From Yuukianura sp. NJ FZ-2021 (taxonomy: Eukaryota), in the NCBI GenBank assembly GCA_046563655.1, contig CM102289.1, forward strand, positions 434,001-498,000: a stretch of 64,000 nucleotides of DNA. Direction: 5' to 3'. Of the stretch, positions 20,884 through 41,094 are shown piece by piece. The notes below the pieces were generated by a model that did not search any database, was not told where the DNA came from, and saw only the letters and a list, made by a program, of their open reading frames with translations. How positions within the stretch are numbered: the stretch's first letter is position 1; every line of letters starts with the position of its first letter. A program made the translations under genes and the position numbers.

Positions 20884-21513
20884 ATGTATTCCTTATTGTT
20901 ACCACTCGTTTTGAATGTAATTCCCGTTTTACGAGTGTCGGCAAATTCAGAAACACTTCGCAATACGTACAACATTGTGAATCTTCATCAACTGGTAGAT
21001 CAGTTTTCCCATAGTGACAATTTGATAATCGCTGAAGATCAGAAGTACCAAATTACTGCAAGTTTCGCCGTTCCGATAAAATTGTATTATATGTGCAACA
21101 AAAATGCAACTTTGGAACCTCCTTTTGAGAAGTTCCATGCTATTAAACGCATGCACATATCAGGTAACAAACTCAGCTACTTTCAAATTTTCCTTGTATT
21201 TCCAAAAAGCATTTATCCACGGAGTTACACGACCGAACGACGACCTTTTTATAGAGTACTTTACTGGAAACGTGATTTCATGCGAACCATAGGTGTTTCA
21301 ATTCATATTGTAGAGCCAGTCAGTGCCATTAGCTCTAGTGCTATAGGCTTAATACTAGAACAACTCCCGTATGCATCCATGTTTTACTATGATATATCAT
21401 CTTCAGCACATTCTCAATTCGCACGAAATGGCCACGAATACATGATTTCAGCAATGTGGTTGCACTTCATCCAAAGGGACGTGTACACTGTAGAATCAAA
21501 CATTGATGAAATA
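20884..21513 (+). pseudogene. IR-like gene copy 3, 5' part, truncated by the BEL/Pao insertion
   Basis: MYSLLLPLVLNV...NTYNIVNLHQLVDQFSHSDNLII is homologous to copies 1 and 2 up to GATGAAATA, then LTR sequence begins. Confidence 0.85.
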
Positions 21514-21840
21514 TGTAAGGATGTTCAACTGCTACCCGCTAGAATGACTGAATCCTTCGTTGTTCGTAGACTGTGTTTACTGAATGATCGATTTATTTAA
21601 CTGAATTGACCAATTAACTCTTTTTACACTTTCTTTTTTGTCCTGTCTCTTGAATATCTAAAATTCGACTCTCTTCTTTTTTTTCTTACTTTTTTCTAAC
21701 TAACAAAAACCTAAAAATAACACACAAAAAACGCTATTTTGAATTTCCCTCTCCCATTCCCTCAAAATCTCAAATTCTAAAAAATACCAAAAGTCAAAAC
21801 CTAAAATTTACAAAAAATAACCTAATTTCAGATCCCAACA
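21514..21840 (-). repeat. 3' LTR of the BEL/Pao element (327 bp, TG...CA)
   Basis: Minus strand TGTTGGGATC...CCTTACA, immediately preceded by the polypurine tract. Confidence 0.9.
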
Positions 21841-23548: not shown

Positions 23549-23664
23549 AGTAGGGAGATAGGACGGACATTCGACTCAAAATGACCTTTGGACCCATAAG
23601 CTTTTTCACAGCATGAGTTCTAGCCCCAATCAGCTGTTAATTAAAGCTAATTAAGACTTCCTGT
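23549..23664 (+). repeat. Left TIR of the Maverick
   Basis: Exact reverse complement of 36004-36119, with an imperfect extension to ~23698. Confidence 0.95.
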
Positions 23665-23824
23665 GACCGAGCTTAATTAGTACCTTTGTCCGTTAACACC
23701 TTGGACAAATAGGAATCCAAGGAGTTTTGGTTATCCAATGGGATTCCTGAATACCTCGACCAAGACGCTTAAAAGGAGATGATGAAGCCTAAATAGTCAG
23801 TTACTTTGTCAGCTTCACAGCGTC

Positions 23825-24193
23825 ATGGCCATATTTTTCGATTTAAGGGCGAGCCGGTTTCCTGTCTACCATTTCTTGTCACCAATCTTAAAGAACAAAT
23901 TCCACGAGGCATTGGACAACTTTGTGGACTATACACAACAAATCCGAACCAAGGAAGGCTGCAACAGGATTTTTACCGAATACCCACTTCTCCAAGGATT
24001 TGAAGACGATCAGCATGCTGATTCCATGTGGATGTACATACTTGGAAAATATTCTAATTCTTTATTGGACTCTTACGTGGCTAATATTGTTGAAAACTTT
24101 TCCGTCAATTCAAAGTCGAATCTATTAATTTTTCAAGAAATTTTTGCCATGCAATTCATTGTTGCTGCTGTTACTTTTAAGCCGAATGAATAA
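23825..24193 (+). CDS. Maverick accessory ORF of unknown function (122 aa)
   Basis: ATG-initiated ORF inside the left end, convergent with and overlapping the protease; AATAAA at its stop. Confidence 0.5.
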   Translation: MAIFFDLRASRFPVYHFLSPILKNKFHEALDNFVDYTQQIRTKEGCNRIFTEYPLLQGFEDDQHADSMWMYILGKYSNSLLDSYVANIVENFSVNSKSNLLIFQEIFAMQFIVAAVTFKPNE

Positions 24194-24724
24194 AAGTTCG
24201 TATTGTTCACAAAATTTTTTGCAGCACTGAACAGTGCGTGGAAATACAGAGCCAAGTCTACAAATTCTTTTCTTTACAAAGTTTACAACAATTTTATCAT
24301 TTGCTACAGTATCATTTGTAAAGCTTCTATACATATTTCCAATACATCCATTTTCTCTGAATAGCTTATGAAGAAAGTAAATTGTATAGTGACCACAAAC
24401 ATCACTGGTGATGCTCTGTAGAATTCTATCCGAATCAATAAGTTTTGAAGAATTAATATTCACAAAGTTTCTAAATACTTCATTGTAGCTTTCGATCCCT
24501 CTTCCATAGGAATCTATGAAAATGATAGGACATGATTTTTCCGCCTGGTAAAGTGCAAGCCAGTGTTGCCCTGGTTTAGAGCTAACATCAGAATTACAAA
24601 CTAAATACAATGGGTATTTTTCAATTTTTAAATTTACAAGCAAGTCGCATGGTATTACATTAAATGTACAACTATTGTCTGCCAAGAAGCAGTTTAGGTA
24701 TCCATAAATTTCTTCGGTATTCAT
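24125..24724 (-). CDS. Maverick adenain-like cysteine maturation protease
   Basis: NSDVSSKPGQHWLA (His), FIDSYG (Asp), LQSITSDVCGHY (Gln, Cys). Confidence 0.92.
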   Translation of the reverse strand: MNTEEIYGYLNCFLADNSCTFNVIPCDLLVNLKIEKYPLYLVCNSDVSSKPGQHWLALYQAEKSCPIIFIDSYGRGIESYNEVFRNFVNINSSKLIDSDRILQSITSDVCGHYTIYFLHKLFRENGCIGNMYRSFTNDTVANDKIVVNFVKKRICRLGSVFPRTVQCCKKFCEQYELLFIRLKSNSSNNELHGKNFLKN

Positions 24725-26058
24725 ACTTCAATTATTGGAGAGTTTGGAAAATCTTTGAAGTAGGCGTTCTTGCTTTTATCAATATACAGCACTGATTGAT
24801 ACTCAGCATAGACGATCACGGTAACAGACTCGGTTAGAGCTTCTCTAAATGCCAAATCAATCTTCACGTTTCCGTACTTGGGGAGTGCAAATCCATCTCG
24901 AATGTGTCGAAGGTTGTAAACTAGCAGAGGATGTCTCTTAAATGTTTCCCGTGTGATATCCAAGCCAACGTCTTCATTCGAAACTCCGAGTCCTTCAAAC
25001 AGGTTGTTGTAGAGTTGAATGTATTGATTTTGACTGAAATCCAATTGAAGAGGTAGATACGTTGTGTTGTCTCCATTTATAGCAACTTCCACTCGATTGA
25101 GGTTGAAATCTTGAAATCGAAATGGGTTCCTTTTTATATCTCCACTGTACGCTTTTGAGGAAACTAATCCCACAACAATTCGATCTGGTAGTAGTCCGCT
25201 TAACACAGTGTCATTCACATCGTTGGTAGCTCCCGTAGCAATAGAATAGGCTTTGAGTTCCACACGTTTCATTGGATATGTTGCAGGATTTCCAGCATGG
25301 AGCGCTGAAATTGTTGCATTCAATAGTGTAGGCAGAAGAACATGCTTTTTGACTAAAAGCTTGGCTTCAACAATCCGAACCGTTGCACTTGTCGTTTGTC
25401 CAGTAAACAGGCAAAAGGCAGTTGGCGATCTTGCGAATGATACCCGCATATCAATACCAGGGATCAAGTATTTGTTTTGAAGAAACAAGTCGCAAAACGG
25501 GCGACCAATCATTTCAAACACTTGACTTCCCTTTGTCACTTTGTAGCGTTCACTGAAGCCATCTTCGTCGGTGGTTAGAACAGATGCTGGATCGTTTTCA
25601 CGATAGTACAAGGCGCATTGAGCTTGTGACTTTTTATACTCTCTGTTGTAGGAAAGTAAAGTGTCCAAATAGCTTCTGTATGCATAATGATTTGTTGCTG
25701 GTGTAACCAAGACTTCGTTCAAATAGATGGCTGCTTGTTGAAACATTGAGTGCAAAAAGTTGTTGACTGTTCCCACAACTGTTGCTTCTTCGAATTGACT
25801 TCCATCTGGTTTGACCACTCTGGCTTTGACGTAAAGTTTTGTCTCGCTCAAATCGATAAACTGAACATCGTTTGATTGAATGAAGAATTCCAGGGGTGAT
25901 GTTTGATCACTAATTGACGTGATTGGATAATGCTCTGATGAGTGTGTTGAAACCAAGCTGACATCATAGTGTGGCTCTTGAAACAGTTGTGTCTCTGAAC
26001 GGATGAATGTAAACGGTAGTGTGGATGGTGCACTTGCTAGTTTTACTCGGCGTGGCAT
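24721..26058 (-). CDS. Maverick major capsid protein (double jelly-roll, 445 aa)
   Basis: YPITSISDQTSPLEFFI, FIDLSETKLYVKA, VNNFLHSMFQQ, YAYRSYLDTLL, DLFLQNKYLIPGID, LPDRIVVGLV, NPFRFQDF; true start is probably ATG 26058 (see findings). Confidence 0.9.
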   Translation of the reverse strand: MPRRVKLASAPSTLPFTFIRSETQLFQEPHYDVSLVSTHSSEHYPITSISDQTSPLEFFIQSNDVQFIDLSETKLYVKARVVKPDGSQFEEATVVGTVNNFLHSMFQQAAIYLNEVLVTPATNHYAYRSYLDTLLSYNREYKKSQAQCALYYRENDPASVLTTDEDGFSERYKVTKGSQVFEMIGRPFCDLFLQNKYLIPGIDMRVSFARSPTAFCLFTGQTTSATVRIVEAKLLVKKHVLLPTLLNATISALHAGNPATYPMKRVELKAYSIATGATNDVNDTVLSGLLPDRIVVGLVSSKAYSGDIKRNPFRFQDFNLNRVEVAINGDNTTYLPLQLDFSQNQYIQLYNNLFEGLGVSNEDVGLDITRETFKRHPLLVYNLRHIRDGFALPKYGNVKIDLAFREALTESVTVIVYAEYQSVLYIDKSKNAYFKDFPNSPIIEV

Positions 26059-26059
26059 C

Positions 26060-26406
26060 TTAGAACAGAAACTTCCCGTCAGCTTTCCGCTTCCTTTTCT
26101 GATTGCGCTTCCTTCGCTTTCCAGAACCAGACTGATCCATAATCTGTGATCCAACTCTTTTAAAGCTTCCCGTCCGTGTTCCTTTATGGCAGAGGAAAGT
26201 GGTTGCTTCTTTGCAACCATGTCGGTGGCAATACTGGTAATTGCAGATGTCGCATGTGGTAGAATAAATTTTTTCAAGAATGGTACAAGATAGCGAGCTA
26301 CACTACCAAAGACACCACCAAGACCTCCACCTCGTTGTCTTCGGATGCCGGCAAAATACAGACGTCCGTCGTCAAATGCTCCTCCGTTTTGTAAGTGATA
26401 ATTCAT
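26060..26406 (-). CDS. Maverick small conserved basic/amphipathic protein (frameshift at ~26158-26161)
   Basis: FAGIRRQRGGGLGGVFGSVARYLVPFLKK N-terminus; alternate frame gives QSGSGKRRKRNQKRKRKADGKFLF-stop one base before the MCP ATG. Confidence 0.75.
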
Positions 26407-28242
26407 TCTTTTTCTCGAAACTGTAGTGTCACGGTCACACTTCCAAACTGTAATGGCATTCTTTCACCACTTTCGTTTAATATATACACGTGCACTGTGT
26501 CGAATTCGGATAAGGCAAGCTCCATGAAATGAGGATGTATGAATTCATGATGTTGTTGTTCCCGATTGTTTCCACTGTAGGGTACAACACGAAGACAAGG
26601 GGCTAATCTATCTCCAATATACTGAGGTCTGACCAAATTACAATAAACAAATAATTTGGTATTTCCTGCTGTAAGGAATATAGGGTAAGCCCCTACACCT
26701 TCGCACTTATGAAGACCAGAGACCTTGGCCGGAGATTCCTCTTCATCCTCACTGGGGGAGGACTCTGCTTCAGTTGTCTTGTCAGAAGATTCCGTTGTAA
26801 TTTCTTTGGAGGTTTTTCTCACTGGTTGATTTTCCCCAGGTTTTACCACTGGTTGATTTTCTTCTAAAGACACAGGTTTTGAGACTGGTTCAATTTCCTC
26901 AAGATTAGATTGAACTGGCTTGTCGGGTTTAACTAGTCTAATTTCAGGAATTTTCTCAGATGGAACTGGTTGAACTTCCTCAGCAGTTGGTCGAATTGCA
27001 TTGGAGACTTGTCGAACTGGTTGAACTTCCTCAGTAGTTGGTCGAATTTCATTGGAGACTTGTCGAACTGGTTGAACTTCCTCAGCAGTTGGTCGAATTG
27101 CATTGCTAGTTTGCGAAAGGGCTATTGGTTCTCATGACCACATTGACTTGTATATAGTTCCTTCCGGCAAATTGTAAATGTGGAATTCTTTTGCTTCGTC
27201 GGAAAACCGTAGTTTGTGGAATTCCGAGTAGTCGGTTAATTTCTATTGTGAAGAAGGCTTGCATTTTAGAAGTTCCTTTCCAAAGAATTCTTACGGTGTT
27301 TTGATTGATGAAGATGTAGATTGGAATATCACTACTTCTGCAGATATTGTTTATAGCGTTAACCAAGTCTTCAATGTCGGCCACTGCGGAACTATGGACC
27401 TCGTATTTTTTTGATTTCCTCGGGCTTGAAAACAAGAAAGCGACAGATCCTTCATAATTATTAAAGTCTGTAACGTTGAATTCCCGTTCGGCTGTATAAT
27501 CTTGAGTCAGCAGAAACTCATTTTCTGAGAAACCCAAGAGGTTGGCAAAATCCCTTGGATATATTTCCACCTTTCTGTACTGTTGACTGTACATGCGCAT
27601 GATGATTGTGCCAGTCTTGCTCTCCAGTTGAATGCCATTGTGTAGTAACAATACATTCATCGGGGTGAAAAAGCTAGAGAGCGAATTAGCTCGAACTTTA
27701 TTGTATCCTGTTTTTGTACGTTTTGCTGCCTCAAAGAAGTGAATTCCATTTCCATCACGAATTTGCAGTTGTTGTGGTGCTTGCTCATGTTGTATATATT
27801 GGCGATGTGATCGGCTACTTGTCAACTTCTCACTAGGCAAGCCCAACAAGTCCTTGATTTTTTCGGTCACTATGATGACTTCTTTTGGGTTACTCAACTC
27901 GATGCTATACTCCAATACGTTGTTGTTGATTGAAAATGTCGAATTTGGAAGAGCAGTCCTGAGAACATCGAGCATTTCATCCTGGGTTGTAACATCTGTT
28001 TTGCTTCGCAGATCAGTTTCAGTAACAGAGTTCAGCTCCCATCTTCTCGTAAACAGCAATTCGTCTTTACTTATAATGGCCAAGCCGGCGGTGTAGCTAA
28101 TGTCTGTCATAGCGACCTCCCATCGTCCAGGTGGGAGGGATATAAAAGTCCCAAGTCTATTTTTAAACTCTGGAATTGTATTGTCTTCATAAATCTTTGT
28201 TGACGCGTTTGACTGAAGAGTAACATAAAAGGATTGAACCAT
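26403..28242 (-). CDS. Maverick minor capsid (penton) protein with a large internal insert; frame break at ~27106-27133
   Basis: N-term FYVTLQSNAS...GRWEVAMTDISY; C-term LFVYCNLVRPQYIGDRLAPCLRVV...VTVTLQFR; 51-bp tandem repeats at ~26963-27105. Confidence 0.8.
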
Positions 28243-28288
28243 GTTGACAACTTGAACACGACTGATGATTTATTACAGTGTTTCGTAA

Positions 28289-29026
28289 TTATATAGACAA
28301 CCACCGTCCACCGTCTTGCCGTACTCGTTTCATTGCTGGGGTGTCATCTAGTAAAGCGGCATTCATGTTGAGACTTCGACGTAGTCTTCGCTTCATGTTA
28401 ACATATTGAGAGCGATGAAGTGGTTCTGTAGGTACAGGAGAGAACGAATGTGCCGGTGTAGTGTACTCCTCTGTAGTCGGTGTAGTTTCTCCTTTTTCAA
28501 GTTCCAGATACGCACGCATTTCTCTTGGAATATTCTCCACGGTTGACAGAATAACATCTACAGCATCCTCCATTCCAAAGGGTGTAATGTATTGTGCCCT
28601 GTCTTCAATTTTGATAATGTGTTGTAAGATTTGGATTATGCTCGATCCTGGATATCTCACTCCATCAATGATAATTTCAAACTTCTCGTTGTATTTTATA
28701 CGGGCTAACTTCATAAGATTTAAAATTTTCTCTGTGATATTTCTGTATGATTCTCCAACTTCTTTGAGGATATACGGTTTTGATAGTTCCAGAAAAATGT
28801 CATCTTCGCTCGAACTAGCGCTTGACACCTTTGTTACATCCTTAACAAGAACAGGCTTCTGACTGTCAGCTTTAGCTGTTTGGAGTTGTCGCCGCAATTG
28901 ATCCTGATAAAAAAGATTTTTGATCTCCGTAGGAACATCAGTCGCTAGTATTTCTCCCAGTTTTGTCTTAGGACTTCCTTTCCACTGCAGATATTCAGCC
29001 TCAGGTATTAACCGCATACGACGCAT
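28289..29026 (-). CDS. Maverick conserved hypothetical protein (245 aa)
   Basis: MRRMRLIP start, EIIIDGVRYPGSSIIQIL core and C-terminal QDGGRWLSI, a pattern typical of a recurrent Polinton ORF. Confidence 0.75.
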   Translation of the reverse strand: MRRMRLIPEAEYLQWKGSPKTKLGEILATDVPTEIKNLFYQDQLRRQLQTAKADSQKPVLVKDVTKVSSASSSEDDIFLELSKPYILKEVGESYRNITEKILNLMKLARIKYNEKFEIIIDGVRYPGSSIIQILQHIIKIEDRAQYITPFGMEDAVDVILSTVENIPREMRAYLELEKGETTPTTEEYTTPAHSFSPVPTEPLHRSQYVNMKRRLRRSLNMNAALLDDTPAMKRVRQDGGRWLSI

Positions 29027-29027
29027 A

Positions 29028-29375
29028 TTACTGATTCAGGAGTTTCTTCTTCACGAGCGAGAAAGCTGCCGGTAATAGCGAACCAAGTATGAGAGGTAAT
29101 ATAGCTCCTCCTCTCTGGCTCAAGAGCTTTCGTTTAAGATCCACTGATAAGCTCGGCTTTGTGCCTATCGTCCGTATCGGTCTTTCAAACTTCCTTAATT
29201 TTTCCAGGACAGATGGCGTGACCGGAACGTTCTTTCGATACACGTTGTAGATGAGTTCACAAATGCTGGTAAGTTCCTCTGGGCTAGCGGTTTGTAAAAG
29301 AGCCTTTCGCTGCTTTGGTCCACACTTTGCTAAATATTTTAGAAAGTGTTTATTCGAGAGTATTCGGCTAGGCAT
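29028..29375 (-). CDS. Maverick small basic protein with QRGG plus a hydrophobic tail (115 aa)
   Basis: FLKYLAKCGPKQRKALL...ICELIYNV...KRKLLSQRGGAILPLILGSLL. Confidence 0.8.
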   Translation of the reverse strand: MPSRILSNKHFLKYLAKCGPKQRKALLQTASPEELTSICELIYNVYRKNVPVTPSVLEKLRKFERPIRTIGTKPSLSVDLKRKLLSQRGGAILPLILGSLLPAAFSLVKKKLLNQ

Positions 29376-29454
29376 GGTGACGCATTACCGACCAGATTAC
29401 GACTGACTGTACAATTTAGAAGCTCGAGTATATAAAGAAATTTCTCAGTCTCAC

Positions 29455-29904
29455 TTGGTCAGTCGAATGGGTTGCATTGCTAGCTTTGGATCCTATTTGT
29501 GTTCTCTGCTGAAAAACAACAGTGAGTTTTCGGTTTGTCAAAACTGCTCCTTCAACGTTGAAATAAACAAAATGGAAGACGAAAATGGTCAAGACGCAAT
29601 TGGGGAGGACGTCTATCAGGACTTGTTGGAAATCATGCAAAAGAAGAAGAAGAAGAAAGACATTGTGAGCACGCCAACTGTGCTTCACGTCCAACGCTCT
29701 GCTCGTGGGTCGCCCCCGAAGCCACAAATCCTGATGGAGGGAGGATGGTCAATTTACTTTGGTGATGAAGTGGGGATCGTCTCGTCCAATCCTACCCATA
29801 TTCACATCAGAAATATTGAAGACTCAAGTATTGGAATCGCACTGAAGATTGATTTATTCGGCTGCTTGTTGCATAGTATGTTAGAACTTAAAAAGTACTA
29901 CTAA
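29455..29904 (+). CDS. Maverick accessory ORF of unknown function (ATG may be 29572, MEDENG...)
   Basis: Acidic then poly-Lys segment; stop overlaps the ATPase stop. Confidence 0.45.
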   Translation: MVSRMGCIASFGSYLCSLLKNNSEFSVCQNCSFNVEINKMEDENGQDAIGEDVYQDLLEIMQKKKKKKDIVSTPTVLHVQRSARGSPPKPQILMEGGWSIYFGDEVGIVSSNPTHIHIRNIEDSSIGIALKIDLFGCLLHSMLELKKYY

Positions 29905-30551
29905 TACATTTTCAAAGTTGAATAAACAGTACACAATTCTGGAAATATATTTGAACGGATTCGATGATCGTCATTCTGTTGTTGAGACATGTCCAAATGT
30001 ATGTAGCTGTTAGGGTTATTCCTTGTGAGTTCTTCATAGACCGTCCGCAAAATTCCCTCCTTCCCTCCATTCATCTGACGACTTAGGTGGTTAATTATGC
30101 TCGTGTCTCTCGGATTCCGGAATAGCGTTATGTACTTGCTGTTGAGAGTGAGCGTTCGGCAATTCTTGTAGAAAAAGTTTTGAAGTGTAATTATAATGGA
30201 CATCGATCTATGGCTCGATCCTCTGGTGCACATTGAGCAAACGTCTTTGGATTGTGAGGCCTCCTCCATAAAGTCGTCCAAAATCACTAATGTTGGAATA
30301 GTGTTTCCTTCAGGTACATCAACGAGTAGACCTTTTTGAAGGTGAATTGCATCTCCCAATGCAGACTTTAACTCGTCTGCAAAAGGTGGCTCATCTTCAT
30401 TGTAACAATACAACACTCGTTCAATGCGAGGATAAATTACTTCATCCTTTCTTAGTATCAAGTCCTTTATCAGGGTGCTCTTTCCGCACTGTGTAGGACC
30501 AGCGCAAGTCATTACAAATGGGTGGTGTAGACGATAGTCATATTCCATCAT
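29901..30551 (-). CDS. Maverick A32/FtsK-HerA-type genome packaging ATPase
   Basis: Walker A GPTQCGKS, Walker B LVILDD, SHRSMSIIITLQN, NSKYITLFRNPRD. Confidence 0.93.
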   Translation of the reverse strand: MMEYDYRLHHPFVMTCAGPTQCGKSTLIKDLILRKDEVIYPRIERVLYCYNEDEPPFADELKSALGDAIHLQKGLLVDVPEGNTIPTLVILDDFMEEASQSKDVCSMCTRGSSHRSMSIIITLQNFFYKNCRTLTLNSKYITLFRNPRDTSIINHLSRQMNGGKEGILRTVYEELTRNNPNSYIHLDMSQQQNDDHRIRSNIFPELCTVYSTLKMY

Positions 30552-30611
30552 GAAGGCTGGATGACAACTGAATATAATGGGCGAGACACACTCAATTTAT
30601 TCAGTTTTAAA

Positions 30612-31526
30612 ATGGCAAGCAACATAGCAACACGTTGGACGAGCTTGAAAACTCCTGGCAGCTTTAGCGGCGTGTCAAATTTTAATCCAAAAGGATCTAC
30701 TTCAAAGGTGAGGCGTGAGCTGAAGAAGATTCCTGCATATACTCTACATCATCCAGTTATAAGGCGGTTTCCACGGAGGAAGGTGATGGTTAGCGGGATA
30801 CACGAACAATACTCTATGGATTTAAAGGACATCCGGAAACATTCAACAGCCAACTTTAAGAAAAAATATCTACTGGTTGTTATAGACGTATTTTCAAAGA
30901 AAGCCTGGATTGAAGCCATACCACGGAAAACTGGCGTTATTGTCACCAATGCCTTGAAGAAGATATTTCAACGCAGCGGCTCTCTTCCGAAGAGAATCAG
31001 TGTAGATGAAGGAACAGAATTTCTCAATCAGACTATGAAAAATTATTTGAAGAAGCAAGGAATCGACTTGTTTTGGACACATTCACCTCTCAAAAGTGTT
31101 GTGATAGAACGATTTATTCGAACCCTGTTTTCAAAGATTCAGCGTTACATGACACATAACAAGACAAAAAGATTTGTCAACAGGCTTCATGATTTTGAAA
31201 AGCTATACAATAACACCTATCATAGAAGTATAAAGATGGCACCGAACAATGTTACTAAAGATAATGAGCAACTAGTACATAGTTATTTGTATCCTCAAAA
31301 GCCAGTTGATTACACACCACCTAAATTTTCTGTTGGAGATAGAGTTTTAGCTGCTAGGAAAAAGAAGACATTTGAGAAGGGTTATACACCAAACTATTAT
31401 GATGAAGTTTATACAATTGTAAAAATTCGAGAAACAATTCCTAGAGTTTACATGTTAGAAGATCCTGAAGGCGTGCCAATCTTAGGAGGATGGTATGAAA
31501 ATCAACTTGTGAAAATAAATTATTGA
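30612..31526 (+). CDS. Maverick retroviral-like (rve) integrase with no C-terminal chromodomain
   Basis: PGSFSG, YTLHHP, SMDLKD, IDVFSK, VDEGTEF, IERFIRTL, YNNTYHRSIKMAP, KFSVGDRV, FEKGYTPN; ends at WYENQLVKINY; alternative start 30561. Confidence 0.93.
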   Translation: MASNIATRWTSLKTPGSFSGVSNFNPKGSTSKVRRELKKIPAYTLHHPVIRRFPRRKVMVSGIHEQYSMDLKDIRKHSTANFKKKYLLVVIDVFSKKAWIEAIPRKTGVIVTNALKKIFQRSGSLPKRISVDEGTEFLNQTMKNYLKKQGIDLFWTHSPLKSVVIERFIRTLFSKIQRYMTHNKTKRFVNRLHDFEKLYNNTYHRSIKMAPNNVTKDNEQLVHSYLYPQKPVDYTPPKFSVGDRVLAARKKKTFEKGYTPNYYDEVYTIVKIRETIPRVYMLEDPEGVPILGGWYENQLVKINY

Positions 31527-34500
31527 GAAATGTCTTTATGTCCAAATGCTAATGTGTTAATTCTATCAATACCATATCGTTTAGTATCTAAACCGTTTAG
31601 CGCCCTTTTTAACGTTACTTCTGTGAAAATTCTATGCTCTACACTTCTAAACCCTCTCATACATACACGAGTTTGAACATCTTCCTTGAGGACTTTCTCG
31701 AAATCTTCATAAGCTATTTGGTTGTTGACAGCTATTTTAGTTATCCCTTTGACTTTCTTCGTGTATTCGTCTTTGATGAACCAGCTACCATCAGTCTTCT
31801 TTTGGTAAATATTTTTTCCATCAAATCCTTTGTAAACTTGCAGCTTTAAGGATCTAATGGTGTACATTTTTGGACGTGGACAAACGACATGAGTGACTAC
31901 CGAACCGGCAGCCTCATCTTTGAATTTTCCCAAAACTTTTTTGTTTGTGGGATCGTGAAACTCTCCGAAAATGGGGTGATCGGATTCATATTCGCTCATG
32001 TCATACAAGTCCTTGTCTTGGAGCATGTCTTGATAAACGTCATCAGTTTGGATGTGATAGATGAAGGAATCTGAAATAAAACGTTAGCTTTAGTTTAAAG
32101 TTAAATTGTGGAATAGTACAACATTTACCTGTGTCAGTATAAATAAGGCGACACTTGTCGACGCCGTATTTCGCCTGTATAGTGTAGTGATGGCGATACA
32201 TGATGCTCTTTGCCAGTTCAAGCACTGTTACCCCCGTAAATATCGGTTTGTTCAAAGTAACTTGAAGTCTCTTCATCATAAAGATGCATGTTGACTCGTT
32301 AATTGGGATGACATTCTGTACGGTGGGTTTCTTGTTGTAACGTAGAGCTTCTTCCATTGATGTAACGATACGAACATTCTGACGCTTGCGTACTTGCTCA
32401 ATGGTTTTACCAAACGCAGAGTTGTTGAGGAGTTTCCAATAATCCTTTTCAAAGTCTGACTTTGCCTTTTTTCTCATTTCGGTGTTAAAGTCGATAAAAT
32501 CCTTCATCCATGCTCTCTGAGTGAAGGAAATTCCACGGTGAAGTTTTGTAACTTTAACTCCAAGCTTCAAGTACTCCATCAAAATGGCGTGATGTAGAAT
32601 ATAGTTTTTCTTATTATTCAGATCAGCCACAAGTTTCTTAACTTTGAAGATTCCAGGACCTGTGTCGAGTTTTTCCGTCAATTGTAACTGGTGACTGGAC
32701 AGCTCGCTCTGTGCAACTGTACGGTTAACTGGAGCCGGAGGAAAATCGTTTAACTTGTCATGTAATAAAGGATCAATTTCCAAATCCACTTCAAGCATAT
32801 ATCCTTTTTCATCGTCCATGATAAAATGGTTTTCTTGAAGTTTCATCAACTCATTTTCTGTTAGCCAGCGAAATTGTCCAGTTGGAAGCGGAAGACTCAT
32901 GCTTTTACCCTAGTGAAAAAAATTAAATTTTACATAATAATTTTTCACAGACGTTGCTGAATACTTACATATAAGTTGTTGGCATCGATGTAGATGAGGT
33001 AACTAGATTCCTTTTCTGGATCGTATTCATCTCCCATGTACTTGTTGTTTGCTCTAGCCTCTCGCATTGATCCAACGCTAACGTATCCACCTATAAATAA
33101 AATGAATAAGAGAATATCCAACATTTGTCTTCTAGGTCTTACCTCTAATAGCATGCTCCAGCCAACAATGCATAGTTGGATCTGTAATTAGCTCTAATTC
33201 CACTCCTGATTTCTTGAGAACACAATCCATTGCCATCATAGGTAACGAGAAATAATGGGTCAGGTCCAATTCGTAAGCATGAAGCATTATTTTTCGGATT
33301 CCCTCCATCACATCAGCCAGAAGCGATACATCCAGCCTGACGTATAAGTCATGCCAATCTCCCATATTTTGGATGTTGAAGCTCTTCCACACTCTTTGAG
33401 CGTGTTCATAACTGCCATCATCAATGTGAGACTCTGTCAAGTCATTGTAGAAATCTTCCTTTGGTGGTAGAGTTGTGATTTCGAAATCCTTGCAAGACTT
33501 CATGAGAGAATAAGGGTAAACACCCTTTTCGAAGAGAAGTTCAATGTCATCGTGTCGTGCAAACTCTTGTCGTGTGATTGGAAATCTGGCATTGGGATCA
33601 GCTCGCATCACTTTCACTAATTTGTCTAAGGATTTCAGTGTAAATCCAAGACTGTCTGTAAACCTCAGCTTGAAGGGCTTTTTCTCCAAGGTCCATCATC
33701 CTCATCGAAATCATCGTGGTACGCGGGAACGATACTCATGGACATGTATTTCTCACTGCTTTTTGGGATTACAGTGATATCCTTGATGATTCCATCCTGT
33801 CTGAGTTTTCCAGCGGATTGCACAATGAAGTGAACGTCATAGGATGAAAAGTTGTGCATAAAGACGGGAAACTCCTTCTTGATTCGCGCTTGGAGGTTAC
33901 AGTCTTGATGAGCCATTCCGATGTAGTTGAACGGTGGAAGATGTGAATGGTGTCGCACTTTAGTTCCATCCAATTGCTTCTTGCAGAAACAACAATTTTT
34001 TTCCATGGCAGCAGCACCTCTTTGCGTAGGAGTCAGATTTAGCATGTCTGGTGCAATTTTTTCATAGTACCGAACTTCCTCTTCCAGTGTTTTGGAGTAT
34101 TCAGTAATGCTCTGAATAAATTTGGCAGCAACGTCTTCCTCATCGTTAGTGATATGATAATATTCACCATGTCTTCTCTTTCCGTTGAAGTCGACACAAA
34201 CCCAAGCATATCCACATGGCTTGTGTAGGTGAGTGCAACACTTGTTTACAGGTTGAACTGGTCTTCCACGTATCTCTTCTTTGAGTTGTCGGCGCTCCTC
34301 CTCTTCTAAAGTTGAGGGATTAAACTTTGGGAGGAAAGCTTCAAAGTCTGCATAGAATCGAAAAGGAACTGGTTGAGTTCTTTCCCACTTGTTGAAAGTC
34401 AATTTGTTGTCAGTAGGATACACAACTTTTTGAAGATCCAACGATGCGCAATATTTGATGTGTTCTTGCAGGGTTTGAATTGTTCGAAAATTGGAGAGAC

Positions 34501-35761
34501 AGTTGCGGCAAATATGTTTGACTCTGTGATCATTTGGGGCTCTCATTAAGGCTTCAAGGTTTCGAATTAGAATGAAGTGTGCGTTGTTTCCTTGCATTAG
34601 ACACATCAAGTCCACATGTATTTCCTTAGACTGTTGTGAGTTGTACAGTATTGAAATCTTGCTTTGTATAAAATTGAATGATTCAATTTTGCTCAACTTC
34701 TGAAAAATCATGTCATCACCATCCATGTCGTAACCGAGAACAGTTATAGAAATCCCAGGGTTCAGTTCTTCAAAGTGAGGAATCTGCTCTAAAGTCATCG
34801 GGAAATGGAGTCCTTTAGTGTTCAACTTGTATTCATTTGGCTGGTATGTCTTCACAAGCTTGTTAATACGAGCTCTATTTTTAGTTTCTCTAATTCCTGC
34901 CATTCTGTCATGAGCAAGTACTGACCACACGAAGCACTTGTTGTGGGAATTGTCAACCGACACTTTGCTGTTGTCAACGTTTAGTATCACACGATGGTTT
35001 GAAAGTGGATATGGAGTTGGAATGTAGGTCCCAATTTTGGTGAATTGATACTTTGTGGTGACAAATCCAAATTTCTGAATGGAATCCAGAGTCCAGCCAC
35101 TTCCTTCATTTGTGAAATCTTCAATTTGATCTGACATTTGACTACACATTACTGACCAAACTTTAGGTAGCATGTTTGCATTGAAGACAAGGTGCCGAAA
35201 TGATGTGAATCCAACATCTTTTGATTCAACAGTTCCATCTGCATGTGTTTTGGTGAAGTGACACCCCAAGGTGAAGAATATCCTTAAGTTCTTCCATCTG
35301 GAGATGTCCTCTCGTATGACTTCATAGGATGATTGCTTAACATTTGCGAAAAAGTCTCTCTCATCGACACCTTCACCACATTGAAATGCATCATGGTCTG
35401 CTAAATACTTCCGACTCATTTTCAGAGATTCCAACACTAGTTTCACAGTTATTGGATCTGTTGACACTCCTCCGCCATCTTGAATATTGAAGTCCGGATG
35501 AGTAGTGTAGAAATGCTCTTGGAGCTTATTCCGACAATCAAATGGAAGTCCACATTGCCAGCAGAACAAATGGCGATATTCTTGTAGAATACTCTCGTTC
35601 GTGACATCGTAACCTGGTGGCGCTGGTTCAAGGCAGTTCTTATGGACACTGTCAAAATGTAGTTTTAATAATGGTCGAGAGGTAAATCCATGACCGCACA
35701 GTATGCAGTTAAAGAGTTTCCTGGATGGCCCAACAATTGGTGCTCCTTGGCGCTTCGACAT
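31520..35761 (-). CDS. Maverick protein-primed family B DNA polymerase (~1357 aa after splicing), three introns, one frameshift at ~33679-33683
   Basis: Two N-terminal C2H2 fingers, EGSGW, YADFEA, EndoVII-like CxxC...HHSH...AHQDCN, HNFSSYD, KGVYPY, IRGG, DANNLYG, KLLNNSAFGK, YTDTDS, KFKDE, PKMY, KVKG; introns 33091-33142, 32910-32968, 32071-32128. Confidence 0.95.
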
Positions 35762-36003
35762 TGTTTAGGACAATAAGAGTCTTAGGACAATAGCAACAAG
35801 AGAACTGAACAGAGAGACTGAAAGTCTCCGTAAAAGGTGTGGTATTATATAGACTCTCGACACCTGCCGACCCCCTAAACCTACCCCCTAAAAACGCAAA
35901 TTTTTCTTCCTTTCTGTGGCTCCTCCTCCTCCTCATGGGTTCCTCCTCCTCCTCCTCATATTGTCAACGGACAAAGGTATTTAATTAGTACCTAACCTTA
36001 GAA

Positions 36004-36119
36004 ACAGGAAGTCTTAATTAGCTTTAATTAACAGCTGATTGGGGCTAGAACTCATGCTGTGAAAAAGCTTATGGGTCCAAAGGTCATTTTGAGTCGAATG
36101 TCCGTCCTATCTCCCTACT
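36004..36119 (-). repeat. Right TIR of the Maverick
   Basis: Exact reverse complement of 23549-23664. Confidence 0.95.
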
Positions 36120-37978
36120 GCTACTGTAGTCTTGCGTCTTTCTGAGTTGACGATCTCTTCTTCTGCCTCTGCGCAGATCCTCGGCCAATTTCCTTCTTCG
36201 TCCTTCAGCCAGGAGGGACCTTCCCACCATTTGGATTCCAGTAACTCTCGGGGTGAACATCCCCGTGAAGGAAGATCTGCGGGATTGACACTGCCAGGGA
36301 CATGCTTCCAAGAATCCACGTTGGTCAACTTCCCAATCTCCTTCACCCGATTTCCAACAAAAGTTCCCCAATTCTCCTGACGCTGGATCCAACTTAAAGC
36401 AGTGGTGGAGTCCGTCCAAAAATGAACTGAGTCGATGTTCACTGTCATAGCCGCCTTGACACTAGTGAACAATCTTGCTCCAATGAGACATCCCATCAAC
36501 TCTAATCTTGGGATTGTCACTTTCTTCTTGTTTTCCCTGCTGATTGGGGCGACTCGTGACTTTGCTGCCAACAGCTGAACTGAAACTCCCAAGTCACTCT
36601 CCACCCTCACGAATACGACACCAGCGTAGGCGACTTGACTGGCGTCCGTGAACACATGAAGTTGAACTGATTTCACATTTACTCCAGCAAATGCATGACG
36701 TGGGATCTTGATTTTCTCTAGAAATTCCATTTCTGTACACCAATTACGAAATGGCTCCTTCTGATCTTCATCCCACTCGACATCCCATCCAAGGTCACTT
36801 GCCCATGCCTGCTGCAGCATCGTCTTCGGTTGAATTAAGGCTGGTGCGGTGAAACCGATTGGATCAAAAACTTGGGACACGACAGACAAAACTTCTCTCT
36901 TCGTCACCTTCTTCACGTCTGGCTCCTTGGGTACTTCACAAAAAAGAAGATCTTGACGCTTGTCCCATCTGAGTCCCAGAACATTGGTGACGAATTTGTC
37001 AAAGTCAAATTCGGTTGACTTCTCCCACTGTCGGAGGTCCATCTTCGCTTCTAACAAAATGTCAATAGCCTCCCGTTTGAACTTTTCGTGTTCTTCTTCC
37101 GTGTCGAATGAGATGACGCAGTTGTCGACGTACAGCGACCGGAGTAGAAGCGTAGCGGTGTCTTGGAATTTCTCTTGTACATTCTTCAGATGTAGTTCCA
37201 AGACTGCTGCCAACACGAACGGACTTGACGTCATCCCAAAAACGACACGACAGTGTTCAAAAGCATGAAGGGAGTCTTCTTTCTCTGTATCCCACCATAG
37301 GAACTTCTGATAACTTCTGTCCTCTTCAGCAACACTGATCATCTGAAAAGCTTTGCGGATGTCTGAGATTGCCCCAATTTTCTTTTCTCTAAAACGTAAC
37401 AAAACAGAAGGAATTAGTTCCAGCATGTTAGGACCTTTCTCCAGACACTGATTTAAAGATGGGAATTTTCCAGTACGACAGGAGGCATCAAAAACAGGAC
37501 GAACTGGTGTCGTTGTGCTCTCCATCTTGAACACTGGTCGATGAGGCAGGAAGTGAGATGAACATTTTTCGAGTTGCGTCTTCCTGATGAATCCTTCCTC
37601 TTCCCACCCTCGAAAAATTTCACTGTAGAGATCCAACTTCTGATTCTTCTTTAACTTTTCAGTGGCAAAATTCAGCCGTTTTTCGCAGACTGCCAAGTTG
37701 GTAGGGAGTTGTGACTTGACCTCTTCATTAACCCATGGTAGGTTAACCACGTATCTCCCGTCTTCGTCTCGTTTCACCTTCTTCAGGAATTCCGCTTTGA
37801 CTTGGGCTTGTCTCTCTGCTTCGGTCATCTTTTCTGCCGAATCGTGTACCCCTAGTAGTTCCAGATCCCAAAGTTGTGAAACGTCGCCGGAGAGATAACT
37901 CTGAATGACCATTTCGGATGCGGCGACTTCAGCTCTCTTCACAGGTCCACACAGCATCCAACCGAAAACTGATTCAAC
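36120..37978 (-). CDS. BEL/Pao pol: reverse transcriptase and RNase H
   Basis: FLPHRPV, RPVFDAS, SDIRKAF, FGMTSSP, LYVDN, VLGLRW, HVFTDAS, TIPRLEL, WTDS, NPADLPSRG. Confidence 0.95.
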
Positions 37979-39813
37979 AACGCGAAAACTCCGTCACTCA
38001 AGTCCACTCGTTTTCCCGTCATCAGTTGTTCACGATAGTCACTTCCCACCAACAGGTCAATGTCATGTCTCTCCATTCCACTGCCACTGTGATCCAAAAT
38101 CGTGATGTTCTGCTTCCTCAGTTCACCAATCCTATTCCCAACGTTGGCACTGGGAAGAACACCTCCAATTCTTGGACGTTCTCGTAGGACTAGTGACTTC
38201 GTGTGTCCTCCGTCCAAACTTCTGACAATCAACTTGTGTTTGAAGAAACGGTCACAATTTGAGATTGTTCCATCAATCATCACGTTCCGGACCCGCTCTT
38301 CCCCAATTGGTTGACTTTGAATTCCGGAAGTCACATGAGACGTCACGTAACTGCTCTGACTTCCCTCGTCAAACAGTAGCCTGGCCACCATACTCGTCCC
38401 GTTCCTACCAAAGACACGAACAAAAACAGTTTTTAGTAACACCTCTCCACCACATTTAATTTCACTTAGAGATGCAGTGGCTTCTGATGCTCCCTGTGTC
38501 GTCAGCTGTTTTTGTTTACTTTCTGTCTTCTTATCATTTGAACGATCTGGGCACATGACATCATAGTGCTTCTTCTGACAGACGGTACAACGGATAGAGG
38601 ACTTGCAAAATTTGGCACTGTGGCCCTTCCGAAAACAAACGAAGCATCCCCTGGCGTCTGAAATCTTCTTTCGTTTCTCCTCCAGTGTCATCTTCACTGC
38701 TCTAAAGCAGTCTTGCGAGGAGTGATTCGATTTGTCACAAAATAGGCATTTTTCTTTTTGTTCAAGAAGCCCATACGCAGTAGGAACATCTTCCTGGCTT
38801 CTATCGTGTTGTTTCGGCTTGTTGACCACTTTCCGTTGAGATGTTGCTGCTTCTGGTTTGACCAATTGACGTTGTTCTGCATTTTCAACTTCAATCTTGA
38901 GGAACTCCATGATGTAGAACAAGTCACTTCGCTGTGGGTCTTCTTTACTTCCATCTCTGCCATAATTCGGATGCCTCTGCCAAACAACCAATAATTCTTC
39001 CGGAAGTGCTGACTCAACCATGGGATACAAAAATTCCGTTGCCACTTCTGAAGTCACTCCGAGTGACTCCAATGCTCTAGTGTGACTATCCAGGCTGTAG
39101 TACAATGTTGACACTCCATCCACTCTTCTGGTTGGTGAGTTGATCAACTTCAGCATTTCCCTGACGTACATCTGCTTGAGAAGTTTCTTTTTCCCGTATC
39201 GTGACGTCAGTGCTTCAATTACCTTTGGGTAATTCTCTTCTGACTGTGGATATGCATCAACGATTTCCCGTGCTCGAGATCCTTCCACAGTCGCTTGGTA
39301 CAAATACTGGAACTTGTCGGTGGCATGCAGCGTTTGATCTTCGTGGATCTTCTGGAACTGTGCCCACCAACCAAGCCATTCCTTCAGTTCTCCATTGAAC
39401 TTCTTCAGTTCCGTCTTCGGCAGTTTAAACTTGCGGCTCTGCGCACTGCCTGAGGCGGAAGTGTACACACTGTTCTCTGGAGTGATACTCTTGTGATCAA
39501 TTGACTCTTGTTTCTCCAGGAATTCCTCAATCTTCAACTTTGTCATAGTGAGTTTCTGGAGATACTCTTCATTGGATTCAGCTTCAGTGTTAAACTCTTC
39601 ATCAGTTGTCGATTCGTTGTCTAGTAAGGCATCAAGGATGATTCGGTCCAAACGACAGACTTCGTCATGAAGATGTTCGATTCTTAGCAGTTTAGCCTTG
39701 AGGAGATTAACATTTACTTCGGACGTCTCCTTCTGCAGTTCTGCCTCAACATCCTTCACCGTCTTCGTTGCCGTCATCCTGACTACTCTTCGTTCTTGTT
39801 TGGATCGATCCAT
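37939..39813 (-). CDS. BEL/Pao gag and aspartic protease (frame break to pol at ~37978-37985)
   Basis: KLPKTELKKFNG...DKFQYL gag core, Cys/His knuckles (CLFC...H...C, CFVC...H...C, CTVC...H...C), LLFDEGSQ protease motif. Confidence 0.92.
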   Translation of the reverse strand: MDRSKQERRVVRMTATKTVKDVEAELQKETSEVNVNLLKAKLLRIEHLHDEVCRLDRIILDALLDNESTTDEEFNTEAESNEEYLQKLTMTKLKIEEFLEKQESIDHKSITPENSVYTSASGSAQSRKFKLPKTELKKFNGELKEWLGWWAQFQKIHEDQTLHATDKFQYLYQATVEGSRAREIVDAYPQSEENYPKVIEALTSRYGKKKLLKQMYVREMLKLINSPTRRVDGVSTLYYSLDSHTRALESLGVTSEVATEFLYPMVESALPEELLVVWQRHPNYGRDGSKEDPQRSDLFYIMEFLKIEVENAEQRQLVKPEAATSQRKVVNKPKQHDRSQEDVPTAYGLLEQKEKCLFCDKSNHSSQDCFRAVKMTLEEKRKKISDARGCFVCFRKGHSAKFCKSSIRCTVCQKKHYDVMCPDRSNDKKTESKQKQLTTQGASEATASLSEIKCGGEVLLKTVFVRVFGRNGTSMVARLLFDEGSQSSYVTSHVTSGIQSQPIGEERVRNVMIDGTISNCDRFFKHKLIVRSLDGGHTKSLVLRERPRIGGVLPSANVGNRIGELRKQNITILDHSGSGMERHDIDLLVGSDYREQLMTGKRVDLSDGVFALLNQFSVGCCVDL

Positions 39814-40051
39814 AACTGTGAATTGGTAATTCAACAAAACAAATCCCAATTAGTAAATTCTACAGCTGATATTGATACGGAACGGTATCACCTCAACTAC
39901 CCCTGAATGCTCAGGGTAGGGCCCACAAAGTGGCAGGTTGTTTGTATCAATCGATGATTGGAAGTCCCACTCGGCCCGGATGATCCGTTCTTCTGTTCAG
40001 GATATCGTCTCTCGGTATCCAACGTTGATCTTCAGTGCACAGTTTACACCA

Positions 40052-40060: not shown

Positions 40061-40065
40061 TAAAA

Positions 40066-40139
40066 TGTAAGGATGTTCAACTGCTACCCGCTAGAATGAC
40101 TGAATCCTTCGTTGTTCGTAGACTGTGTTTACTGAATGA
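40066..40139 (-). repeat. Truncated 5' LTR (74 bp) of the BEL/Pao element
   Basis: Identical to 21514-21587; the match stops abruptly at 40139. Confidence 0.9.
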
Positions 40140-40890
40140 ACCTTACAAAGCATATGAGAAGGGAAGTGTTTCATGGTCTACAATAGATAATAAATAATAA
40201 ATAATAATAGACAATAAATAATAATTTACAGAATACTAATTCTGATCAGTACTGGCAAGGTGATTTCTATTGGACATGCATTCTAAGCGTAGGTTTTCTA
40301 AGCGTACGTTTCTAAACCTTACAAAGCATATGAGAAAGGAAGTGTTTCATGGTCTACAATAGATAATAAATAATAAATAATAATAGACAATAATTATAAT
40401 AATTTACAGAATACTGGAATTCTGATCAGTACTGGCAAGGTGATTTCTATTGGACATGCATTCTAAGCGTAGGTTTTCTAAGCGTACGTTTCTAAACCTT
40501 ACAAAGCATATGAGAAAATTAGGAAGTGTTTCATGGTCTACAATAGATAATAAATAATAAATAATAATAGACAATAAACTAATAATTTACAGAATACTAA
40601 TTCTGATCAGTACTGGCAAGGTGATTTCTATTGGACATGCATTCTAAGCGTAGGTTTTCTAAGCGTACGTTTCTAAACCTTACAAAGCATATGAGAAAGG
40701 AAGTGTTTCATGGTCTACAATAGATAATAAATAATAAATAATAATAGACAATAAATAATAATTTACAGAATACTAATTCTGATCAGTACTGGCAAGGTGA
40801 TTTCTATTGGACATGCATTCTAAGCGTAGGTTTTCTAAGCGTACGTTTCTAAGCGTACGTTTCTAAGCGTACGTTTCTAAGCGTACGTTC
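40140..40890. repeat. Tandem array of four ~180-bp units followed by 14-bp TTTCTAAGCGTACG repeats
   Basis: Units start at ~40140, 40317, 40497 and 40678 (ACCTTACAAAGCATATGAGAA...). Confidence 0.9.
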
Positions 40891-41094
40891 CGTTAACGTA
40901 CGCTTAAGACTTTTCGCGCGTTAAAATTTTTCTGCAATTGAAATTACTGCAATTAAAAAAAGTTTTCGCGCATTAAAGTAATACGCGAAAACGTTAGTTT
41001 TTAATTGGCGGAACATGTTTTAACGCGCGAAACTTAAAAATAATTTTGCCACCAAACTCCCTCCATATTGCAGAGCCAGACATCTTCCAGGATG

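Follow-up and report, generated by a model that had tools for sequence, protein, structure and literature searches.

Putative spliceosomal introns interrupting the catalytic domain of a Maverick/Polinton DNA polymerase

Results

An integrated Maverick/Polinton element probably has, in its polymerase gene, three genuine U2-type (GT-AG) introns that are spliced by the host, as judged from the sequence anatomy of the interruptions and from comparison with homologues and sister copies. The Maverick would be transcribed in the host nucleus, the host spliceosome would cut out introns of 52, 59 and 58 nt, and only the spliced message would encode the palm and fingers with motifs A, B and C. Because the element multiplies as DNA, the introns would be copied into every daughter copy and so persist in the family. 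Constitutive splicing is most simply assumed.

The gene lies in a 12.6-kb element (23549–36119; 12,571 bp) within the window (the whole 64-kb stretch of DNA analysed). Its limits are given by terminal inverted repeats (TIRs), AG ends and gene content, the last comprising an rve integrase, the polymerase and two ORFs that resemble an ATPase and a capsid gene. The left TIR (23549–23698, plus strand) and the right TIR (35962–36119, minus strand) pair as 135-nt arms with 94% complementarity; the extended alignment of the left arm with 36119–35962 spans 158 nt at 90.5%, and AG forms the first letters of both arms. A 5-bp target site duplication abuts the element, reading GCTAC on the plus strand at 23544–23548 with the same five letters at 36120–36124. 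Maverick/Polinton elements are recognized by a target site duplication of 5–6 bp together with AG...CT termini, and here a 5-bp duplication and AG ends accompany TIRs, an rve integrase and a protein-primed family B polymerase. The insertion splits a Pao/BEL retrotransposon into an upstream part (36107–39849, minus strand) with gag-like DUF1759, Peptidase_A17 and RVT_1, and a downstream pol part (21923–23575, minus strand) with an integrase zinc domain and DUF5641; a 78-nt direct repeat, 99% identical, flanks the retrotransposon at 21510–21587 and 40062–40139.

The integrase ORF (30531–31526, plus strand) is convergent with the polymerase gene, and its rve core matches Pfam PF00665 with an E value of 7.9e-13 and 49 bits (cut-off 32.6). 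The P-loop ATPase ORF (29901–30596, minus strand) is probably a packaging ATPase, with sub-threshold Pfam matches to AAA_14 (2.6e-4), Adeno_IVa2 (0.006) and Pox_A32 (0.012). The 580-aa ORF at 24721–26463 (minus strand) probably encodes the major capsid protein, of double jelly-roll type; feature-based look-alikes and weak Pfam similarity serve as leads only, namely an atlas feature score of 0.97 to 'F54H12.2-like' clusters, a score of 0.94 to a cluster with 51% MCP_V20_C and 39% Sputnik_MCP_1st, and a Pfam match to DJR-like_dom at E 0.075. A Pfam scan of the nine other ORFs gave no match to an adenovirus-like cysteine protease up to E 5. Stop-to-stop reading agrees with the initial annotation that no other long ORF in the element needs joining.

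The polymerase gene occupies 31520–35761 on the minus strand, from an ATG at 35761 to a stop at 31522–31520, and comprises approximately 1,360 codons with the introns removed and a frame break (see below) read through. The initial annotation as a viral DNA polymerase of Maverick type is supported, the gene belonging to the protein-primed family B: exonuclease and polymerase motifs are readable, and there are 41 polymerase homologues at E<=1e-5, several of which carry PF03175. The Pfam match of exon 1b to DNA_pol_B_2 is weak (E 2.3e-4, 20.6 bits, below the cut-off of 25.8).

All three minus-strand introns that the initial annotation had placed in this gene are found at the same positions. Intron 1 (33142–33091; 52 nt, phase 1, GTAAGA..TTTATAG, GC 0.269) lies behind base 1 of the first Gly codon in I-R-G-G, intron 2 (32968–32910; 59 nt, phase 0, GTAAGT..TTCACTAG, ending CTAG, GC 0.237) separates DANNLY from G, and intron 3 (32128–32071; 58 nt, phase 1, GTAAAT..TTTCAG, GC 0.259) lies behind base 1 of the Asp codon next to YTDT. 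Each runs from GT to AG and is AT-rich (GC 0.24–0.27 versus 0.405 in the exons), and each interrupts the frame, with unspliced reading hitting a stop after 3, 8 and 29 codons in introns 1, 2 and 3 respectively. Further U2-type features are the consensus-like donors (GTAAG or GTAAA), the pyrimidine-rich 3’ ends and a branch site, with CTAAC located 12 nt from the 3’ end of intron 3. The open exons are 184, 40, 260 and 182 codons long, and all of the catalytic motifs are intact. It had been claimed that splicing all three introns restores a continuous frame; this holds only from 33695 to the stop at 31520, and an additional one-base break further upstream had been missed.

The exon translations were aligned one by one to the 41 homologues, and the gap between neighbouring exons was counted. 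The exons adjoin in 28/41 homologues at site 1, 34/41 at site 2 and 32/41 at site 3. Between exons 2 and 3 the gap in these homologues is 0 residues (the other seven are not aligned end to end), and between exons 3 and 4 it is exactly 1 residue (nine not aligned end to end). At the junction of exons 1b and 2 the gap is 1 residue in five homologues, the four closest among them, and 0 residues in 23 that are one residue shorter after GG, with 13 not aligned end to end. For three segments that can be cut out to give gapless collinearity, the chance that all six ends carry the GT or AG required is about (1/256)^3.

In sequence the interruptions match spliceosomal introns in every property, so a full-length polymerase would require host splicing, as the initial annotation reasoned. 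Its comparison with host introns is apt for their style and not for their size: at 52–59 nt the Maverick introns are shorter than all nine definable introns inferred in the adjacent host methionine synthase gene (65–164 nt, median 82, GC 0.22–0.40), a single gene with too few introns to set a minimum. Group I and group II self-splicing introns are ruled out, as no Rfam family matches at E<=1 across 23000–36500 and 52–59 nt is far too short.

The one-base frame break is located at approximately 33679–33688 on the minus strand, ahead of intron 1 by some 450 nt, between the frames of ORF 35764–33665 and ORF 33695–33132. These two ORFs overlap by 28 nt only, in a segment containing a run of five A, and homology ends at codon 33733–33731 and picks up again at 33668–33666. 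A one-letter length variant is present at 33678 in a minority of the contig depth. Given the break, this copy could specify an N-terminal part of about 690 residues at best; the full enzyme is not encodable by this copy alone, which probably relies on intact sister copies. With its frame broken, selection on this particular copy should not be assumed.

The polymerase family is multi-copy in DNA runs from two studies, and the introns are kept in diverged sister DNA copies. Contigs 2–10% diverged from the window span every one of the three introns, with intron 1 covered by X3 record 17 and X1 record 3, intron 2 by X3 record 17, and intron 3 by X4 record 24; none of the 12 joints listed in the DNA runs removes an intron. 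The 169 intron bases make up 3.8% of the stretch and contain 13 of the best-supported 40 base differences (741 further ones lie beyond these), as well as four of the best-supported 12 indels (11 further), each of 1 or 2 nt. Among these best-supported 40 base differences and 12 indels, variants and out-of-frame indels thus concentrate in the introns, and no change falls at any GT or AG.

The polymerase belongs to a clade of related polymerases (95/94 support), with the named relatives, from Folsomia candida, showing 48% identity. As judged from protein ends only, P0001, P0042, P0043, P0046 and P0061 drop homology directly behind YTDT (site 3), with tails that open G-K or G-N as in the reading of a GTAA donor, and P0072 and P0211 show the downstream side of the same site, opening with a short pyrimidine-coded head followed by DS.IY. 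Likewise from protein ends only, P0042, P0044 and P0045 start a few residues ahead of GGYVSVG at site 1. For P0042 and P0046 the scripted call at site 3 was 'contiguous', but visual inspection of the alignment shows homology lost past YTDT, and they were counted accordingly; the ambiguous P0206 was left out of the count. At site 2 a clear break is so far seen in this element only. P0046, P0049, P0062 and P0065 begin at a conserved Met just past site 2 and were also left out of the count; such starts may be an intron or a gene-caller effect. The P0046 and P0061 sequences point to a putative further interruption inside motif B, which is absent here.

Sites 1 (R-G|G) and 3 (YTDT|DS) thus appear common to elements only about 54% identical and, being shared in the clade, would be older than this family or recurrent. 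The closest relative found, P0048 (74% identity, measured on the latter half of exon 3), is uninterrupted at site 3, as are P0047, P0052, P0055 and P0002; read-through of the P0048 type is either a loss, a parallel gain or a transcript-derived record. On a tree of 141 columns the site-3 label needs two changes, of which well-supported branches force one, and the order of gain and loss is not resolved inside the clade. A search of more distant loci with a 6-sequence alignment yielded 80 (<=43% identity), a set that does not include the contigs of the close relatives; 73 of them give a single uninterrupted match over all three sites, six end before site 3 (five at a contig end, and L069 short of its contig end), and L026 has a small frame change. 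A scan of viral contigs with exon 3 gave no relative. The survey of relatives proposed in the initial annotation thereby shows that sites 1 and 3 are not unique to this element, with most distant loci uninterrupted.

Discussion

It is very unlikely that the three interruptions go unspliced, as mere intron lookalikes formed by short AT-rich insertions into a family of decaying pseudogenes. The frameshift does break this copy, and 1-nt exon indels occur at 34176 and 33678 in some sister contigs; however, three independent insertions would all need exact GT..AG ends and removal that restores both frame and collinearity, and would also need to fall where other elements break, in a gene whose exons between the interruptions have stayed open with their catalytic motifs intact. 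A source of the introns in an intron-generating transposon is the least probable proposal, and we consider it extremely unlikely. Introners are reported inside Maverick-Polinton-like proviruses of dinoflagellates (PMC11957031). Here, however, the three introns have no significant similarity to one another or to anything else in the window (matches reach 8–17 nt at best, with E 0.04 or worse), and 52–59 nt leaves no space for terminal repeats.

We also judge it unlikely that the upstream frame break is something other than a defect, whether a fourth intron or -1 slippage on the five A, by the ribosome or during transcription. A candidate intron of 62 nt can be drawn from a GT at 33730 to an AG at 33670–33669, and cutting 33730–33669 places codon 33733–33731 next to 33668–33666 in frame; the short overlap of the two frames, with the A run inside it, suits slippage. 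Against these readings, the candidate intron has a GC of 0.50, lacks a pyrimidine tract and opens with GTTCCC, which makes a poor donor, and a run of five A is short for slippage. Moreover, a sister subfamily (loose ends at 33685 in X1, X2 and X3) has a diverged acidic version of the segment, which by hand translation keeps a single frame, varies largely in steps of complete codons and continues into the downstream frame, as coding sequence would. The initial annotation further proposed a possible tissue-specific or latency switch by intron retention, as in the P element, with a polymerase-dead N-terminal product. In such a scheme introns would be kept according to tissue or state, and the product, an exonuclease part devoid of polymerase motifs, would limit or delay replication. 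Keeping any one intron would close the frame ahead of motif A, B or C, and introns this short relative to those of the host could be spliced inefficiently; no other observation speaks for it. However, the donors GTAAGT, GTAAGA and GTAAAT are near consensus, unlike a deliberately weak regulated site, and retention would put stops far from the 3’ end, where nonsense-mediated decay is expected; an unspliced message, with its early stop codon, would more readily be degraded than give a truncated protein that is stable. We consider such a switch quite improbable, and find no better odds for its clade-wide form, in which Mavericks of springtail-like soil animals would have long held polymerase-core introns and retained them on purpose to gate replication by splicing.

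The reading that we prefer, three U2-type introns removed by the host, bears on the nature of these elements. Mavericks/Polintons stand at the border of transposon and virus, and a given lineage may live as a nuclear resident or as a particle-forming virus. With introns in the polymerase core, the replicase of this lineage would be expressible solely by transcription in the nucleus followed by host splicing. This speaks for a lineage that has long lived in the nucleus and adapted to its host, and against one that is expressed in virus factories of the cytoplasm. Surveys of ORFs that are blind to splicing, or definitions that equate intact with intronless, would split or drop such elements, and the shared intron sites offer a marker with which to trace this polymerase clade. 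The impact on the field is modest, as many DNA transposons, and many DNA viruses of the nucleus, use splicing.

Two well-known systems invite comparison. In the P element, retention of intron 3 is tissue-specific, and the unspliced message yields a truncated but working repressor; the Maverick resembles it as a DNA transposon whose key enzyme would need splicing, and differs in that the P element is defined by that tissue-specific retention and working repressor protein. Adenovirus, a relative among the protein-primed nuclear DNA viruses, makes its polymerase mRNA through host splicing, but there a short leader from upstream is spliced onto a frame that is otherwise uninterrupted, whereas here the catalytic domain itself is cut by introns.

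Among virus-like elements, the dinoflagellate Maverick-Polinton-like proviruses carry introner-family introns (PMC11957031) and share with this element spliceosomal introns alongside polymerase and integrase genes; those are mobile introner copies in protists, whereas the introns here are unique, very short, without copies in the window, and in an animal. Closer to hand, the related polymerases P0001, P0042–P0046, P0061, P0072 and P0211 fall in the same clade and break at the same site-3 residue and phase as judged from protein ends, three of them also breaking at site 1, and differ in having no clear break at site 2. The Mavericks of vertebrates and nematodes are alike in their TIRs, short target duplication, protein-primed family B polymerase and rve integrase, and probably also in their ATPase and jelly-roll capsid-like gene. 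The literature consulted treats the core genes of these elements as intronless, and one source applies 'intronless genes' to the core set and places introns in cargo genes only (10.1101/2022.07.12.499685). No earlier report of introns in a Maverick polymerase core was found in the main texts of the literature consulted. In contrast to those intronless core genes, the element described here has three introns in its polymerase core, and these are real and unusual for Mavericks.

The polymerase gene and its predicted introns

The Maverick polymerase gene (minus strand, 35761-31520) is a single long gene in five open pieces separated by four gaps, three of which are the introns proposed in the initial annotation; their coordinates and GT..AG ends are confirmed. 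All are on the minus strand. Intron 1 (33142-33091, 52 nt, GTAAGA..TTTATAG) is in phase 1 and splits the first Gly codon of I-R-G-G, intron 2 (32968-32910, 59 nt, GTAAGT..TTCACTAG) is in phase 0 at the DANNLY/G boundary, and intron 3 (32128-32071, 58 nt, GTAAAT..TTTCAG) is in phase 1 within the Asp codon following YTDT. For introns 1, 2 and 3, unspliced reading meets a stop after 3, 8 and 29 codons, and their GC contents are 0.269, 0.237 and 0.259, compared with 0.405 in the exons. Intron 3 contains CTAAC 12 nt upstream of its 3' end.

The exons, translated separately and each aligned to 41 polymerases (456-2000 residues) retrieved with exon 3, are collinear with their homologues. No residues lie between the ends of exons 2 and 3 in 34 of the 41, and exactly one, the split Asp, lies between exons 3 and 4 in 32; the other seven and nine, respectively, are not aligned end-to-end. 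Between exon 1b (the open piece preceding intron 1) and exon 2 there is one residue in five of the 41, the four closest among them, and none in 23, which are one residue shorter past GG; 13 are not aligned end-to-end. Alternative nearby GT..AG pairs have an equal effect on the frame, but they would remove or add conserved residues.

Two C-x2-C-x12-H-x4-H patterns resembling C2H2 zinc fingers are present in the first ~90 residues of the polymerase (35590-35710, minus), and Pfam gives only faint matches to them (E 0.099 and 4.1). The interval from the right terminal repeat to the polymerase ATG has GAG-rich simple repeats at 35900-35960 (minus); they open a frame of 84 codons (35963-35709), which overlaps the polymerase start in a different frame.

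The element and its surroundings

The polymerase gene is part of a 12,571-bp Maverick/Polinton (23549-36119) with inverted terminal repeats of 135 nt at 94%, or 158 nt at 90.5% by a longer alignment; both ends start with AG and are flanked by a 5-bp duplication, GCTAC. It encodes an rve integrase (Pfam E 7.9e-13), an ATPase-like ORF whose Pfam matches are all sub-threshold, and a 580-aa ORF whose only likeness to the major capsid proteins of Mavericks and virophages comes from a feature search; a Pfam scan of nine other ORFs, up to E 5, recognised no protease. Apart from the unusual structure of its polymerase gene, it is a typical Maverick/Polinton. Four tandem 51-nt units (26882-27115, 61-100% alike) lie within its 242-aa ORF (26403-27131).

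The Maverick (23544-36124 with the duplications) interrupts the pol frame of a Pao/BEL retrotransposon, dividing it into halves at 39849-36107 and 23575-21923, and is therefore the younger of the two. The retrotransposon has a 78-nt direct repeat (21510-21587 and 40062-40139, 99% identical), and just beyond its upstream repeat is a tandem array of ~180-nt units (40139-40933, 66-100% alike). The window's host genes are a plus-strand methionine synthase at about 4.9-10.6 kb and, at 43-49 kb on the minus strand, two neighbouring laccase-like multicopper oxidases (43045-44658 and 47136-49301), apparently a tandem duplicate. The best named match of the methionine synthase is from a springtail (73%), and those of the Maverick polymerase are from another springtail (48%). 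As a lead, these matches suggest that the host is a springtail-like hexapod.

Sister copies and the upstream frame break

The listed runs that contain the stretch, none of them RNA, are four DNA contig sets (X1-X4) of two studies; sister copies were taken from these, with contigs placed at a likeness of at least 85%. Between 138 and 739 contigs per run match the polymerase stretch, and the Maverick family is therefore multi-copy. Introns 1 and 2 are spanned whole by X3 record 17 (32878-33164; 17 differences, 2 gaps), intron 1 by X1 record 3 (32972-33272; 30 differences, 11 gaps), and intron 3 by X4 record 24 (31964-32174; 5 differences). None of the 12 joints listed removes an intron, so among these no intron-less DNA form is seen. 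Among the best-supported 40 base differences (741 further), 13 are located within the introns, whose 169 bases make up 3.8% of the stretch, and none changes an intron GT or AG. The best-supported 12 indels (11 further) comprise four within introns (1, 2, 2 and 1 nt), four upstream of the ATG and four in exons (3, 3, 1 and 1 nt). These best-supported differences and indels give an indicative enrichment of variants within introns.

The initial annotation held that splicing restores a continuous frame, which is so across the three introns but overlooks a one-base break upstream. The ORF ending at 33665 and that starting at 33695 are offset by one base, in or beside a run of five As at 33683-33679 (break at 33679-33688). 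A fourth intron of 62 nt (GT at 33730, AG at 33670-33669) would allow this break to be bridged; homology to other polymerases ends at codon 33733-33731 and restarts at 33668-33666, and the acidic stretch between these limits is peculiar to this lineage. However, the candidate has a GC content of 0.50 and a poor donor, and lacks a pyrimidine tract. Sister-subfamily contigs extend past 33685 with a diverged version of the acidic stretch that, translated by hand, is in a single frame leading into the downstream one. At 33678, a minority of the contig depth differs in length by one letter (X1 241/1924, X2 319/2116, X3 0/23, X4 28/170); this depth includes diverged contigs, such that these fractions do not give the share of broken copies. 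We read the break as a probable frameshift of this copy or its sub-lineage, and this copy alone would therefore give no full polymerase.

Putative intron sites in related polymerases

The related polymerase proteins in public sets (P-numbers) come mostly from non-splicing gene callers, so an intron appears as a protein ending or starting at its site. Breaks at the positions of introns 1 and 3 (sites 1 and 3) are found in some relatives, but most read through. At site 3, homology is lost directly past YTDT in P0001, P0042, P0043, P0046 and P0061, whose tails start G-K or G-N, the reading of a G/GTAA donor; on the downstream side, P0072 and P0211 open with a short head, encoded by a stretch of pyrimidines, and continue with DS.IY. 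Of 65 proteins, five break here, 47 read through and 13 are not covered or unclear, and among the 150 exon 4 matches listed, motif C is uninterrupted by pattern in 104, and two have a clear head signature. At site 1, P0042, P0044 and P0045 start 3-5 residues upstream of GGYVSVG; 42 of the 65 proteins are continuous here. Site 2 is read through in 48 of 65, and four start at a conserved Met just downstream, an ambiguous sign. One of the P0046 and P0061 records has 34 additional in-frame residues between LLNN and SAFGKT (motif B), and the other starts exactly at that point; both indicate a probable additional intron site in relatives, absent from this element.

None of 80 more distant metagenome loci shows an intron at sites 1-3, and a single uninterrupted match covers all three in 73. 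The closest relative found is P0048 (74%), in which site 3 is uninterrupted; intron 3 may be absent from it, or its record may be a transcript. A 141-column tree unites the window's polymerase, P0048 and the intron-bearing relatives in a clade with 95/94 support. Its branching within this clade is compatible with a single old gain followed by losses as well as with gains in parallel. To judge from these protein sequences, the unusual gene structure is partly common to a clade of relatives.

Predicted splicing and comparison with known systems

Nuclear transcription and predicted splicing of the polymerase message is the most likely reading: the integrated Maverick would be transcribed in the nucleus, and once the spliceosome had removed its three short introns, the message would code for a polymerase with a length of about 1,360 residues. 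As this element replicates as DNA, all copies would inherit the introns. Nine inferred introns of the host methionine synthase are 65-164 nt long (median 82) with GC contents of 0.22-0.40, and their donors and 3' ends are similar to those of the Maverick introns; the proposed match with host introns holds for style, but at 52-59 nt the Maverick introns are shorter than all nine. The further suggestion that regulated retention of these introns acts as a switch is very improbable: retained introns would put early stops in the message, messages with early stops are usually degraded, and the intron donors are near consensus.

Splicing also occurs in adenoviruses and in other DNA transposons. In a full-text search covering main texts other than those of the two founding papers and a major review, no animal Maverick was reported to have spliceosomal introns in its polymerase core. 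Endogenous mavirus-like elements are without introns (PMC8547959), and introner-type introns are present in Maverick-like proviruses of dinoflagellates (PMC11957031). A nematode study describes Maverick core genes as intronless, with introns only in cargo genes (preprint 10.1101/2022.07.12.499685), whereas the element described here has three predicted introns in its polymerase core.
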